Assembly (NCBI GenBank): GCA_964016885.1
Contig: OZ024759.1
Location: 31,186,001 to 31,250,000, forward strand
From: Eledone cirrhosa
Lineage: Eukaryota
Direction of reading: 5' to 3'
Length of the DNA: 64,000 bases
The position numbers were made by a program, and so were the translations under genes. Within the stretch, counting starts at the first letter, position 1; each line of letters starts with the position of its first letter. The notes below the pieces were generated by a model. That model was not told where the DNA came from. It did no database searches and was given only the letters and a program-made list of their open reading frames with translations. Below, piece after piece: positions 25,528-62,834 of the stretch.

Positions 25528-25742
25528 ATAGGAACAAGTAGGACCCCGACGGCTGAGCTCAAGCCGTTTCGACGGCTAATTCTGTCCAGAATTAGCCGTC
25601 CAGCGTCCAGAATTAGCCGTCGAAACGGCTTGAGCTCAGCTGCCGGGGTCTTACTGGTTCCTATTACCCACTCTACTACCTCAAGTATTGAGTACTTTGG
25701 TGCGTTATGGTCCACCTGGTTCCTTACCACATTTCCTTCGTT
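25528..25742 (+). mobile_element. Hairpin-plus-tail insert in (TA)n; family also at 4705-4780, 37140-37222, 49627-49836, 50297-50480(-)
   Basis: Inverted arms ending at CCTAT; shared tail TACCCACTCTACTACCCTAAGTATTGAGTACTCTGGTGCGTTATGGTCCACCTGG. Confidence 0.8.
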
Positions 25743-25764
25743 ATATATATATATATATATGTCT

Positions 25765-25894
25765 TCATTTCTGAAAACAGCATGTATATGTGAAGGTATG
25801 TATATTTCCTCTGATAATTTGTAATATTTTTACATAGAACTATATGATATACCTACCAACACACATATACATCCTAGAAACGATCGTAAAATGA
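25765..25894 (+). ncRNA. Long-stem-II hammerhead motif, G8A variant
   Basis: TCATTT-CTGAAAA-(~100 nt hairpin)-GAAA-CGATCG-TA-AAATGA; paralog of 45510-45641. Confidence 0.6.
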
Positions 25895-26231
25895 TGAATA
25901 TTTTAATATAAGGAACTTGTTCTTTGTTTTTATTTCATTGTTTTTATTAATTTATATATATACACACACACATATATATATATATATATATATATATATA
26001 TATATATATATAAAAAGCTCCCAGTCCACACTGTCAATGTGGTTGGTGTTAGGAAGAGCCAAATAGTCCTATACAAGCGAGACAGAGTCACCTGACCAAT
26101 TTTGCCTCAAGTGGGGCAATTCCCATCTAACCCATACTAGTGTGGAAGATAGACGTTAAACGATAATGATGATGATGCTATATATACATGCAAGCAGGGA
26201 AAAGGGGACGTAAAATGATGATGATGATATA

Positions 26232-26568
26232 TCATCATCATCATTTTTACGTCCGCCTTTTCCCTGCTTGCAAGGGTGGGACGGGACTGATTCTGGCTTG
26301 AGTTCTACAGCTGTATGCCCTTCCTAACACCAACCTCATTTACAGTGAGTGTTGGGTGCTTTTTTGCTGTGGCACCTCAACGACCACTTTGCAGTGGAAT
26401 GATAGGGACCCCTGTTCCTATCATCTCATTTCTACAGCTGAGTAAACTGGAGCAATGTGAAATAAAGTGTCTTGCTGAAGGAAACAACACATCACTCGGT
26501 CTGAGAATTGAACTCACAACCTTTCGATTGCAAGGCCAATGCTCTAACCACTAAGACATGTGCCTCCA
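26232..26568 (-). mobile_element. tRNA-head SINE with RTE-type (TGA)n tail (family B)
   Basis: tRNA-like head with A/B boxes, core TCCTTGAGCAAGACACTT-like, tail GGACGTAAAA(TGA)n; copies at 4806-5055, 44806-45138, 50585-50865, 53850-54132(+). Confidence 0.9.
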
Positions 26569-26626
26569 TATATATATATACACACACACACACACACGCA
26601 CACACACACACACATACACACAGGGA

Positions 26627-27522
26627 GAGGGTGTGGACGATATGTGTTCGCAATTTTCAACTGCTAATTTTATGCAAATTTTTTTTACTTCTGTTGTCAC
26701 TCTTGTCTTCATAAAAACAGTGACTATATGTCCATTATTTATTTTCAGAATAATTGATTATGAATAATTTTGAACCTCCAAATTTGTGGAAGAGACACGG
26801 AGTTCTTCTTGGAATCCGCGCCGGGAGGACAAATAAGACCAGAAGATCAACTCCCAGAACAACAGGTGGCTTGCTGTTTCATCCAAAGACGTGCCCAGAG
26901 TCATGCAAACAAAGTTTCCAGCGACAACATTGGTCTTAGGTGTCGTCAGCAGTCAAGGTGACGTCATGCCACCTCACTTCTTCCCTGAGGGCCTCAAGCT
27001 GAACACTGATGGCTACATCCGCATTCTGAGTGAGGTAGTATAGGCCTGGATCAACCAGGTAGCTGCAGGTAGGCTGTACTTGTGGCAGCAAGACTCAGCA
27101 CCCTGCCATACCAGCCGAAAGACCCAAGCCTGGCTGTCAGAGAACTTCGTCGACCACACTTCACCTGACATCTGGCCTCCCAGCTCGCCTGACTGCAACC
27201 CCCTCGACTTCTTTGTGTGGGGCGCAGTGGAATGAGACACCAACAGATCTAGCTGCAATACGAAAGACGATCTGAAGGCCAGGATCACAAGTGCCGTTAG
27301 GGGCCTAAGTTGGGGGACAGTGACGAAGGCCTGTAGCTGGTTCCGAGGCCGCCTTGAGGCCGTCATCAAAGCCAATGGCGGGTTTATCAAGTGAGATCGA
27401 AAGAACAAGCAAGTCATGAAGACAAACTGACCCAAGTTTGATAAATAAATCTTAAAAAATAAAACTACTGTGTTATTTTTTCCTAGACAGTAATCTTGTG
27501 AACAGATATCATCTGCACCCTG
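26627..27522 (+). mobile_element. Internally deleted Tc1/mariner transposon, DD37D (maT) type
   Basis: Imperfect ~26-bp TIRs (AGGGTGYRGAYGATATSTGTTCRCAA), TA at right end; WQQD-(37 aa)-D in ...WPPSSPDCNPLDFFVW; in-frame stops; N-terminal domain mostly deleted. Confidence 0.9.
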
Positions 27523-59429: not shown

Positions 59430-60306
59430 TTAAATACAAAAGCCTTGAATTCCTAAATCTCGATTTCAATGCGAAAATGAATGAATGAATGAATAAATAA
59501 ATATATATATATATATATACACGTATATATATATATATATATATATATATATATATAAAAGGAATTGATCAAGAAGTTCCTAGACCTAATTTGATTACCA
59601 AGTGAGGTGGAACTCTCCAATTCGGACCAAGGAAACAATGTTTCCATTGGTCTTTCCGTTGCTGATACTCTCAACCAGTTGCAACTCCTGACAGAACTAA
59701 ATAAATATAATGGTTTCTGATTTAAGCACAAGGCCAACAATTTTAGGGGGAAGTGAAAGTTGATTGAATCGACCCCAGTGCACTACTGGTACTTTATTTT
59801 ATCGATCCCATAAGGATGAAAAGTAAAGCTAACCTCGGCGGGATTTGAACTCAAAACATAAAAATACAAAACTCTATGATGCAAAGGATGTTGTCCAAGA
59901 GTCTACCTCCCTAAATAGACATAAAATAAAATAAAATAAAATAAAATAAAATAAAATAACGTCCTTTGTTCACATTTCAAAGGCAGTTAATGTTTCTGAA
60001 GTGTAAAAAGAAAACCTAATCTCATTATTGATATTAGCTTTCATGTATACGTATGTTGTTTATAGCATGAAGCAATTAACAAGCTGCTCATGCTAAGCTA
60101 GTTGAGCTGAGTTCCTTTTCAGGAAATATTAAGGAAATTCGACGGCAACAAGATAGAATCAATAGAATGTTTTTTTTCTTGTTTGCCAATTAGAGACGGA
60201 ATTCAGTTTTGTAACATCCTTAGCATCCTTCATTACTTCTGTTAGTACAGCATCCTGTAAACCTTACTTCTTGATATATATATATATACACACACACACA
60301 CACATA

Positions 60307-60660
60307 TATCATCATCATCATCATCATTTTACATCCGCTTTTCCCTCTTGTAAGGGTGAGACGGGTCCTATTCAGCACAGCATCTCTCTACTCATGACGG
60401 TCCTTCGTCGTCACCTCTGTGAGCTTCAGCAATCTGGGGTCTGTTCTCACCACCTCAGCACACGTTTTGGGGGGTCTTCCTTCTACTATATACTAGAGGA
60501 AGACCACGAAAAACATGGGCGGAGGTGGTTAGAGCAGACCTCAGATCATTCAAGCTCAGAGGAGAGGATGGAGGGCCGTGACAAGTGGAGAGATGCTGTG
60601 CTGAATAGGACCCATCCCACCCTTGCAAACTGAAAAGCGGACGTAAAATGATGGTGATGA
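60307..60660. mobile_element. Two RTE 3' ends head-to-head
   Basis: Minus copy 60307-60485 and plus copy 60493-60660, both truncated at the GRPRKTW-coding segment. Confidence 0.85.
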
Positions 60661-61141
60661 TATATCCTGAAAGAATCATGTTAAACCTTTAGCATTCAAA
60701 CCGGTCGTATCCAAACAGAATTCTGTCACCTTTTTATGTCCAAACCAGCCATAACCAGCTGCTCATATTGATGTGAAGGTATTGTTCTCAAAATAAATAA
60801 CATCAAAATCTCATAGATTCGATATTACGTGGGATAGTTGTGTAAGATAAAGCCTTTACCACAAATAATACAATAGTATAGAGTAATGTAAATGGTAAAG
60901 GCTTAAGCCAGGCAGAGCTTATCTCTCTCCAGATCTGAATACAACCAATTTCTTCCAGAGAGAGAGAGACACCCAGTATTGACTTGCTACTTTATTTATC
61001 AATCTTTTATCAATCTCAAGACAATGAAAGATAAAGTTGACCTCGGTTTAATTCAAACTCAGTGCACACTGGATTAGAACAAATAACCCAAGGTATATTT
61101 TATAGAACACACTTAACGTCTCAGCTAGATTTCCACCTTAA

Positions 61142-61583
61142 CCTTTTAGTCTTTAAACCGGCTGTATCCGGCCAAAATTCTCTCACCTCTTTCTGTTCAA
61201 ACTGGCAATAACCAGCTAATCATACTTATGTTAAGGTATTGTTCTCAAAATAAATAATATCAAAATCTCATAGATTCGATGTTATGTGAGATAATTATGT
61301 AAGAAAAAACCCTTACCTTGAAATTACAATAGTAAATATAGAGAAATATAAATGCTAAAGGGTTAAACATTTAGCATTCACATTATTCTATATTTACTGT
61401 TGTAATTTTGTGTTAGAGGCTTTATCTTACATAATATCTCACATAATATCGAATCTATGAGATTTTGATATTTATTTTGAGAACAATACCTTAATATAAG
61501 TATGAGTAGCTTGTTACAGCTGGTTTGAACAGAAAATGGTGAAAGAATTCTGGCCGGATATGACTGGTTTAAATGCTAAAGGG
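61142..61583. mobile_element. Two inverted piggyBac-type MITEs sharing one TTAA
   Basis: 61142-61362(-), TTAA 61363-61366, 61367-61583(+). Confidence 0.9.
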
Positions 61584-62217
61584 TTAAGATGTGGATGTGA
61601 CTCTTGAAAATGATACAAATATTAAACCACTCCATCCTTATGAAACCCTGAATAAATTTTTTATTTTATTTTATTTTTATGTCTCCTAACAAAAAGAAAA
61701 TTGGCGTCGAAGTCAATTAGATTTTGTTGATTCAGTATTTTGATTTGCGAGAAGGGGTAGCGAAGTATATCTTAAAACGGAATTGAATAGATTAATATAG
61801 CTCAGTAATGTATTAATCACGCTATTTTCTGTTAAATATTAATCATAGACGAAATGAATTCTGCTTGCGTGTACAAAACTGTCAGAACTTATATATTTAT
61901 TATTTAAACCCATCACTTAATAAGTCAACTGTTCTAATTAGAGAAATACTAATGATATTAGTAAGGTCATACAGGAAAAATATTCAAACCAATTTGATGA
62001 TAAACTTTCCAACTGAAGGTATTGATTTTTTTTTATTTTATCACATAAATCACGCAGCAACCTTTCACTTATCGATATCACATTAACATATATATACATA
62101 TACATATATATATACACACACATATAAATAAATATATATATACACATATAAATAAATAAATATATATATATACACATAAATAAATAAATATATATATATA
62201 TATATATATATATTATA

Positions 62218-62834
62218 TGTTATACTTGGGGAGGGTCATATTTGTGTAATAATATTGCCAGAATTAATAACAGAACACACTCACTGTTTGGTTGGTTTTC
62301 GCTTCTGTGTCTTTTATATCAGTTAATTTAATTTATTCGGTCCTCAATGTTACCATTGACTGACCAACGGTCAAAAATACAGATACAATATAGACACAAA
62401 CACATATATATAGTCTAACAAACTTCTTTCGTTGCACATCTGCAACATCGCAGAGAAGACAAAAATAAATAAATAAATAAATAAATAAACAGACTAAATA
62501 AAGATGGCGTAGGCATACAATACAACAGGAGGAAACATAATAGCACCACTGACGATGTTGCAGATGTGCAACGAAAGAACTTTGTTAGACTATATATATG
62601 TATTTGTGTCTATATTGTATCTGTATTTTTGACCGTTGATCAGTCAATGGTAACATTGAGGACCAAATAAATTAAATTAACTGATATAAAAGACACAGAA
62701 GCGAAAACCAACCAAACAGTGAGTGTGTTCTGTTATTAATTCTGGCAATATTGTTACACAAATATGACCCTCCCCAAGTATAACAATATTTGTTTCGACA
62801 CACGATTTCATATCAAAAACCTCGCAAAACTAAT
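62218..62834 (+). mobile_element. Large head-to-head HHR insert in (TA)n
   Basis: ~233-bp arms 62218-62450/62553-62785, tail 62786-62834; single-arm paralog at ~41460-41562. Confidence 0.85.
62541..62588 (+). ncRNA. Type-I hammerhead motif
   Basis: CTGACGA-T-GTTGCA-GATG-TGCAAC-GAAA-GAAC-TT-TGTTAG; strong stem II, imperfect stem I. Confidence 0.65.

Follow-up and report, generated by a model that had tools for sequence, protein, structure and literature searches.

Insertions of Penelope-like elements (PLEs) have been described by Craig et al. 2021 (PMC8557442) as carrying an inverted 5′ copy and a tail at one side only; there the tail is ascribed to endonuclease resolution, the mechanism is left open, and the origin of tandem and inverted repeats, tails, and microsatellite bias stands as the open PLE problem. 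Head-to-head PLE palindromes are explained in PMC3846280 by self-priming on an antisense template, and dual minimal hammerhead ribozymes on opposite strands, 100 to 700 bp apart, are reported in PMC4209133. For a Poseidon PLE assayed in vitro, both strands were found to be cut and extended, with two internal starts delimiting the tail, and the start site did not differ between strands (Frangieh et al. 2024, PMC11167929). A term search of the main text of a 2026 retrozyme preprint found no treatment of inverted products. Here we describe hairpin insertions between TA runs in a 64,000-nucleotide (nt) stretch of Eledone cirrhosa DNA (the window; GCA_964016885.1, OZ024759.1:31,186,001-31,250,000, forward strand), and we follow the family of the copy at window position 25528, termed F1, through the genome. 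We give a probability of about 0.72 to the view that these hairpins were produced by the insertion of endonuclease-bearing Penelope-like retroelements into (TA)n, both 3′ ends of the cut priming on one capped RNA at two different fixed internal sites.

TA runs are abundant across the window. Masked self-alignment and direct reading of the sequence showed that, in 11 of the 11 named copies, two arms in inverted orientation lie between TA runs and additional sequence is present at one side only; one arm ends early (the "short" arm), and the other continues into the additional sequence (the "tailed" arm). As a sequence-only reading of the window had proposed, the short-arm end is fixed within families: CCTAT in the copies at 25528, 49627, and 50297; GTATAACA(AT) in those at 24055 and 62218; and TACATACAT in those at 37257 and 45140. 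Arm-arm identity by self-alignment was 97 to 98% in the copies at 36442, 45320, and 62218. The layout itself, an inverted pseudo long terminal repeat (pLTR) with a tail and dual ribozymes on opposite strands, is real but not new, being in print in PMC8557442, PMC3846280, and PMC4209133. What is new is the tightness of its construction, namely, the pairing rule, the symmetric inner ends, and the 5′ stop.

F1 is abundant in this 3.0-Gb genome. Exact matches to a 22-mer of the 25528 arm number 14,740, versus 0 for the reversed control, so the recurrence of this arm is not due to chance. A genome search gave 2,296 F1 candidates, 40 of which were scored, and exact patterns detected 7,358 short and 7,769 tailed arms. 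With L141:3849 taken as offset 0 for all F1 offsets, the short arm ends at offset 60 and the tailed arm at offset 140, both at TAT motifs that lie 80 nt apart and flank the tail. At least 6 nt of TA was present on both sides in 66 of 70 F1 insertions; the TA runs did not differ in length between the two ends (P 0.49), and no target-site duplication could be defined inside (TA)n.

Pairs of arms almost always joined one end of each kind. On C1 from 0 to 57 Mb, where 87 short and 100 tailed arms matched exactly, all 60 divergent pairs within 400 nt were short plus tailed (P of about 6e-19 if arms were independent), with 27 short and 40 tailed arms unpaired at exact match. A mismatch-tolerant set (L031 to L180 plus the window), which overlaps the C1 set and includes two pairs that are local duplicates, yielded 89 pairs: 82 short plus tailed, 4 in which the short end was slightly changed, 2 mispaired neighbors, and 1 true short-short pair (L039). 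Six other families gave 49 short-tailed pairs out of 60, with 1 short-short, 0 tailed-tailed, and 10 unclassified. Longer copies follow the same rule: among the tail-to-ORF places examined (ORF, open reading frame), all 10 long inverted insertions for which both ends could be resolved had one end of each kind, and the same two outer ends bound multikilobase insertions bearing reverse transcriptase (RT) sequence. A literature search of open main texts, with supplements and subscription papers outside it, returned no statement for PLEs of a one-short-one-tailed rule, cap run-off, or twin priming.

The data support the conclusion that both arms of a copy were copied from one RNA. Arms mismatched at 1.4% of positions within copies versus 3.8% between copies (67 pairs), the excess of arm-arm over copy-copy identity that had been anticipated, and 0 of 5,000 permutations gave a within-copy value as low. 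At four diagnostic sites the arms agreed in 94, 90, 93, and 90 of 94 pairs, 27 of which come from the similarity-ranked loci L001 to L030. Upstream repeats differed at 0.9 of 248 sites within long insertions versus 8.0 between insertions, and an identical rare chimeric joint is present in both arms of L214. This chimera (L214:4552-5246) joins ORF offset 271 to a TATA-bearing fragment and then to the start, and its short arm begins at offset 71 rather than 60; L214 is likely a derived nonautonomous source.

Central junctions differ from copy to copy, as had been noted for the window: 82 F1 pairs contained 66 distinct junctions. The overlap is present twice in most pairs, in agreement with the duplication claimed earlier. 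The arm extending further 5′ was the short one in 31 pairs and the tailed one in 34, with 17 ties, and some arms are stubs that do not overlap their partner, with lengths of 7 to 80 nt for tailed stubs (L074, L149, L150, L152, L153, L157, L159, and L175) and 8 nt for a short-arm stub (L133). Among 47 insert-free junctions, 17 were blunt and 20 shared one base (13 expected by chance); other junctions contain short repeated copies of the 5′ end. Since fold-back, whatever its polarity, leaves one arm as a subset of its partner, pairs led by either arm and nonoverlapping pairs disfavor it, and two independently primed cDNAs (complementary DNAs) are the best reading of the arms of a copy.

The 5′ ends, described earlier as truncated, are not random truncations in F1, where they stop at one start-like place. 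The furthest 5′ end of the 82 pairs lay at offsets -4 to +6 in 67, beyond these in 2, and further downstream in 13; 17 of 187 arms passed offset -9. About 90% of arms stop at a start resembling a TATA/initiator (Inr) arrangement. A beginning at precisely offset 0 was counted for 6,861 arms, and in the wider family 3,422 pass -9. Offset 0 corresponds to the A in TTAGTC, with TATTTAAA 29 nt upstream; we take TTAGTC to be an Inr and TATTTAAA a TATA element. The base preceding offset 0 at solo (TA)n junctions was G in 53, T (templated) in 32, A in 10, and C in 5 (first 100 of 205, counted by hand), compared with G 29, T 24, C 17, and A 3 at offset +5 (73 junctions) and G 1, A 6, and T 93 at offset +11 (first 100 of 123). 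Locally, an extra G was found at 18 of 28 nonpartner junctions. Such a position-dependent G fits a main capped start at offset 0 and a minor one at +5. Offset -4 was rejected as a second start, since no extra G is found there and the extension is due to partner-arm overlap; a splice acceptor at the stop was also rejected, the arms including the AG and having no constant upstream exon.

Some arms reach the start and then resume at internal offsets of 181 to 958 (L146, L184, L188, L192, L199, L202, L203, L207, L208, and L216), and these joints often carry one to three extra letters, frequently a G. The jumps from start to interior imply that ORF-bearing RNA was present and that the stop exists without a palindrome. 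At L117:2928-3654, a tailed arm is followed by two rounds of offsets 0 to 253 with identical endpoints and then by the short arm, a pattern that repeated jumps to a single RNA end, or a small circular template, would produce.

The F1 parent is, judging by its motifs, an intact endonuclease-positive (EN+) PLE with an RT plus a GIY-YIG domain at the C terminus. Its single ORF, an open frame of 786 amino acids at L141:3879-6236, contains YRDD and VIY..YIG motifs that were read directly; 660 relatives of the same build were found at E below 1e-20 (among 7,994 scored), and a Pfam search of the ORF returned 0 families. The frame carries RWR (for RWK), DKT, CNCPDRSIC (a CxCx5C linker), CNLC (CxxC), and CKH (CxH), with no CCHH and with a single Cys between VIY and YIG. 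By these motifs the parent is assigned to the Hydra clade, in favor of which Neptune was dropped, and the Penelope-like origin suggested earlier is borne out. The pLTRs are seen in partial tandem with an inverted 5′ copy and an optional tail in L141, L185, L190, L196, L210, L211, L213, and L219. Within the upstream repeat of the full-length element, the tail continues into the ORF at the second TAT, so both starts can be internal, and priming of the tailed arm at the RNA 3′ end, which the sequence-only reading had invoked, is not needed. Only 68 tail-then-ORF places exist genome-wide, 42 of which, the first in contig order, were examined. A 430-nt segment absent from the L141 unit was considered as a spliced intron and set aside as a deletion, its joints not being GT..AG and the segment being kept in most copies. 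At least 5 head-to-tail F1 units with a period of ~3,542 bp occur at L220 and at C1:91.47-91.49 Mb. Open frames of a second, different RT-like family adjoin arms of another family, F4a, at L133 and L177 (e.g., L117:5700-5900) and possibly represent its parent.

These results can be accommodated by the following scheme. A protein, likely a dimer, would bind the tail and thereby set one polymerase site at each tail end, and the two 3′ ends of the cut would prime on one RNA at the two internal TAT sites. The tail-primed enzyme would displace the other cDNA, the RNA not being degraded; both cDNAs would run off the capped RNA 5′ end and would then be joined by an end-to-end template jump or by end joining, which would also supply the second strand. 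Small insertions (minis) would arise from priming near the RNA 5′ end, like paired strong-stop DNA, and long and partial-tandem copies from priming in the downstream repeat and/or from jumps past the start. Priming by both ends of a break on one RNA, the core of the sequence-only reading, is upheld by the pairing rule, the independent arm ends, the arm matching, and the long insertions, and the fixed internal AT site proposed for the short arm corresponds to the TAT at offset 60. More tentatively, and with the odds somewhat against it, the whole could form a PLE paired strong-stop cycle, in which a dimer grips the tail close to the 5′ end of the RNA, one cDNA per target strand is made from each tail border to the cap, and template jumps decide the product. 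If this were true, a jump to the partner cDNA would give a mini hairpin and its second strand, and a jump back onto the RNA would give tandems and, through the repeated segment, copies of full length; one cycle, parallel to the retroviral U3-R-U5 plan, would then account for pLTR, tail, inverted end, and partial tandem alike. The ~15,000 young F1 arms are a natural record that separates transposition models and yields exact, testable predictions: two starts, one per strand; a stop at the cap; and end-to-end jumps. Through these inserts, many thousands of hairpins have also been sown across the E. cirrhosa genome.

Several observations weigh against two-ended priming on a capped RNA as formulated here. 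Short-short copies occur (L039 and window 19042), and the strict pairing of short with tailed arms is unexplained by PMC11167929, because no difference in start site between strands was observed there. The capped start at the F1 5′ stop is deduced from DNA only; G is common at offset +5 as well, which weakens that control, and a local bias of untemplated addition, instead of a minor start, could explain it. When the first 100 of the 6,861 arms were sampled irrespective of junction type, the base preceding offset 0 was G in 47, C in 45, and A in 8, C being as common as G because partner arms supply letters. A sharp 5′ stop is established for F1 alone, the pileup in family F5 being loose (16 of 47 arms near a TTAGTT motif), with many arms passing it. 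The F1 counts use exact motifs and favor young subfamilies, and a parent ORF is linked to F1 but to none of the remaining six families. The two arms disagree at a diagnostic site in about 4% of pairs, and in the 25528 copy they do so at three; two templates were therefore sometimes used, likely so in the 25528 copy. Later conversion between arms could be a partial source of the arm matching.

An unlikely variant keeps two-ended priming and changes the template to short read-through RNAs (start-arm-tail-(UA)n), made from a promoter in the 3′ repeat of truncated copies and mobilized in trans; the tailed arm would then prime where the tail meets (UA)n, much as at the RNA 3′ end of the sequence-only reading. 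Sources of such RNAs are plentiful, with the 3,422 promoter-side arms set against only 68 tail-into-ORF places and promoter-tail-(TA)n loci far outnumbering full-length sources, and their (UA)n could pair with the target. That pairing, however, should yield tailed-tailed and short-short copies, which are both nearly absent, and the start-to-ORF jumps show that ORF-bearing RNA was at hand. Palindromes are established to break at their centers, and if self-priming or fold-back made the second arm, later breaks of this kind would vary the junction. Fold-back would account for the arm matching, and two places in the window (19042-19744 and the center at 36510-36557) resemble true fold-backs; self-priming on an antisense template is also what PMC3846280 proposes for head-to-head PLE palindromes. 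We nevertheless consider it quite improbable for these insertions, given that the two arms lead equally often, that the 7- to 80-nt stubs lack partner overlap, that the same 5′ stop is found in solo arms and jumps where a palindrome is absent, that the 25528 arms derive from two subfamilies, and that junctions are mostly blunt or share 1 nt (37 of the 47 without inserts).

Two further explanations concern the hairpin itself. Each family could be a fixed hairpin element, MITE-like (miniature inverted-repeat transposable element) or a palindromic master RNA, mobilized as a unit and with decay setting in at its center; fixed ends agree with this, as do centers that recur (up to 4 of 82, and more among the 30 best matches to the query). 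We judge it very improbable: constant centers and symmetric ends were not what was found, as the tail is one-sided and 66 of 82 centers are distinct; both flanks are TA runs, in which no target-site duplication can be defined. The same two ends, moreover, bound multikilobase RT-bearing insertions, and subfamily variants are mirrored in both arms. Assembly artifact, to which we attach next to no weight, has to be raised because palindromes between microsatellites are hard to assemble and because at the 25528 locus short reads break off at TA runs and leave the locus unspanned. At the family level, the F1 architecture is not an assembly artifact, because raw short reads and independent short-read contigs repeat its ends, strand switches, and variable centers: in three other runs, thousands of raw short reads pass into TA at exactly the two ends and the same runs hold strand-switching joints, mostly from 1 to 3 start places each, and the contigs contain many different skips across the 25528 center (15 listed plus 29 more). 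The arms also differ from each other by 1 to 2%. A step in the depth of RAD (restriction-site-associated DNA) reads was set aside as evidence, being confounded by a cut site at L141:3856.

The full F1 repeat folds as a three-way-junction hammerhead with a U3-A8 core, a variant described in PMC4209133, and cleavage is predicted after offset 40; the folding z-score is not significant. Because offset 0 sits in loop II, F1 minis keep only the 3′ half of the hammerhead, and a likely promoter and start lie inside loop II at L141:3800-3900. The F1 RNA would have half a ribozyme at its 5′ end and a whole one at its 3′ end, and if the two ends assembled in trans, both could be cut and a circle could form. 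A ribozyme on each strand, claimed earlier for the hairpins in general, holds for some families only: of the 11 copies searched with a hammerhead descriptor, 1 (1091) had a core that was complete on both strands; the descriptor also gave both core halves on one strand in the 23271 copy, and no match in the F4, F5, and F6 window copies, and one long-stem core was recognized by eye at 45320. An Rfam scan of the window at gathering thresholds gave 0 matches, as expected for minimal hammerheads. Families F2 to F7 are provisionally assigned as Penelope-like by their shared layout, plus hammerhead-like cores for F2, F3, and F7 only.

Within the window, the F1 mini insertion occupies 25530..25741 (+ strand), with a short antisense arm (25530 to ~25588), a slipped center, a sense arm, and an 80-nt tail ending at 25741; its arms differ at three subfamily-diagnostic sites, and only the hammerhead 3′ half is present. 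A mini insertion of an F1-related subfamily lies at 49630..49836 (+), with the short arm left and the tail right, and a more diverged F1 relative at 50296..50478 (-) has the tail left and the short arm right. The F2 mini insertion (1092..1301, +) is the copy with a complete minimal hammerhead core on both strands. Two more minis follow, that of F3 (23268..23455, +), whose short arm extends further 5′ than the tailed arm and holds the CUGAUGA half, and that of F4a (23896..24052, -), with the tail left. F5 is represented at 36441..36806 (+) by a short arm on the left, an 87-nt tail on the right, and a small fold-back piece at the center (36510-36557). Both F6 insertions are on the - strand: 37256..37494 has the tail left and no hammerhead core was found in it, and 45138..45296 has shorter arms and a different center. 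F7 (45316..46067, -) combines a ~130-nt tail on the left with arms 97% identical and a 250-nt unpaired center, and F4b (62214..62833, +) has arms 98% identical and a ~43-nt tail on the right. The exception is the F4-type short-short hairpin at 19042..19830 (strand undefined), which is central in ~310 bp of flanking DNA duplicated in inverted orientation; the mirrored flank is 98% identical, antisense F4 sequence then resumes, and the whole resembles a fold-back that passed through the target before returning to the RNA.

Other features of the window include lone F1-type tail pieces adjoining TA runs at 4703-4777 and 37163-37217. Palindromes of two opposed common short interspersed repeats, not of the short-tailed type, are found at 26189-26272, 60314-60661, 61134-61591, 6421-6695, and 58368-58558, and tandem arrays at 40244-40907 (~99 bp) and 528-1041 (~60 bp). 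A 484-codon open frame at 52044-53495 resembles, by eye, an RT fragment of the LINE (long interspersed nuclear element) type found in many loci.

Penelope-like RTs are the sister group of telomerase, and several better-known systems invite comparison. During L1 twin priming, both target ends prime on one RNA, giving an inversion with no duplicated overlap and a variable second start. The insertions described here have the inversion and would share the two-ended priming, whereas they show a fixed second start and an overlap present in two copies, and a poly(A) end is required by neither start. In retroviral minus-strand strong-stop DNA and in R2 end-to-end jumping, synthesis is primed close to the 5′ end of the RNA, run-off adds an extra base opposite the cap, and a jump follows. 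The resemblance to them is one of working and not of membership; here the primer would be target DNA, and two cDNAs would be made at once and inserted directly. MITEs have symmetric terminal inverted repeats and a constant interior, unlike these copies with their one-sided tail and differing centers. Non-LTR (long terminal repeat) retrozymes consist of head-to-tail units with complete hammerheads; the minis are head to head, those of F1 are without the 5′ half, and only L117 has a short tandem.

Poseidon_Ac in vitro (PMC11167929) is similar in that the tail lies between two internal starts, cutting and extension affect both strands, the RNA template is uncleaved, and a dimer is predicted; that study did not cover joining or 5′ run-off. 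Its starts are neither homologous to the target nor strand specific, whereas here both are TAT microhomologies, coupled one per strand. With the Hydra clade, as described in PMC8557442, F1 shares a single ORF, RT with GIY-YIG at the C terminus, the clade motifs, a (TA)n target, and a hammerhead in the repeat. It differs in that most F1 units are ~3.55 kb, against a tendency to under 3 kb there, in having a U3-A8 variant hammerhead with the promoter in loop II, and in that ~90% of its arms are ORF-less run-off products, as shown for F1 only. Published PLE insertions with an inverted pLTR and tail, in PMC8557442, PMC3846280, and PMC4209133, have the same head-to-head copy, tail at one end, and hammerhead remnants. 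Their tails are 30 to 40 nt, compared with ~40 to 130 nt here, where almost all copies with two arms carry a tail at one end only; and while the published readings invoke self-priming or endonuclease resolution, the data presented here favor two primed cDNAs.

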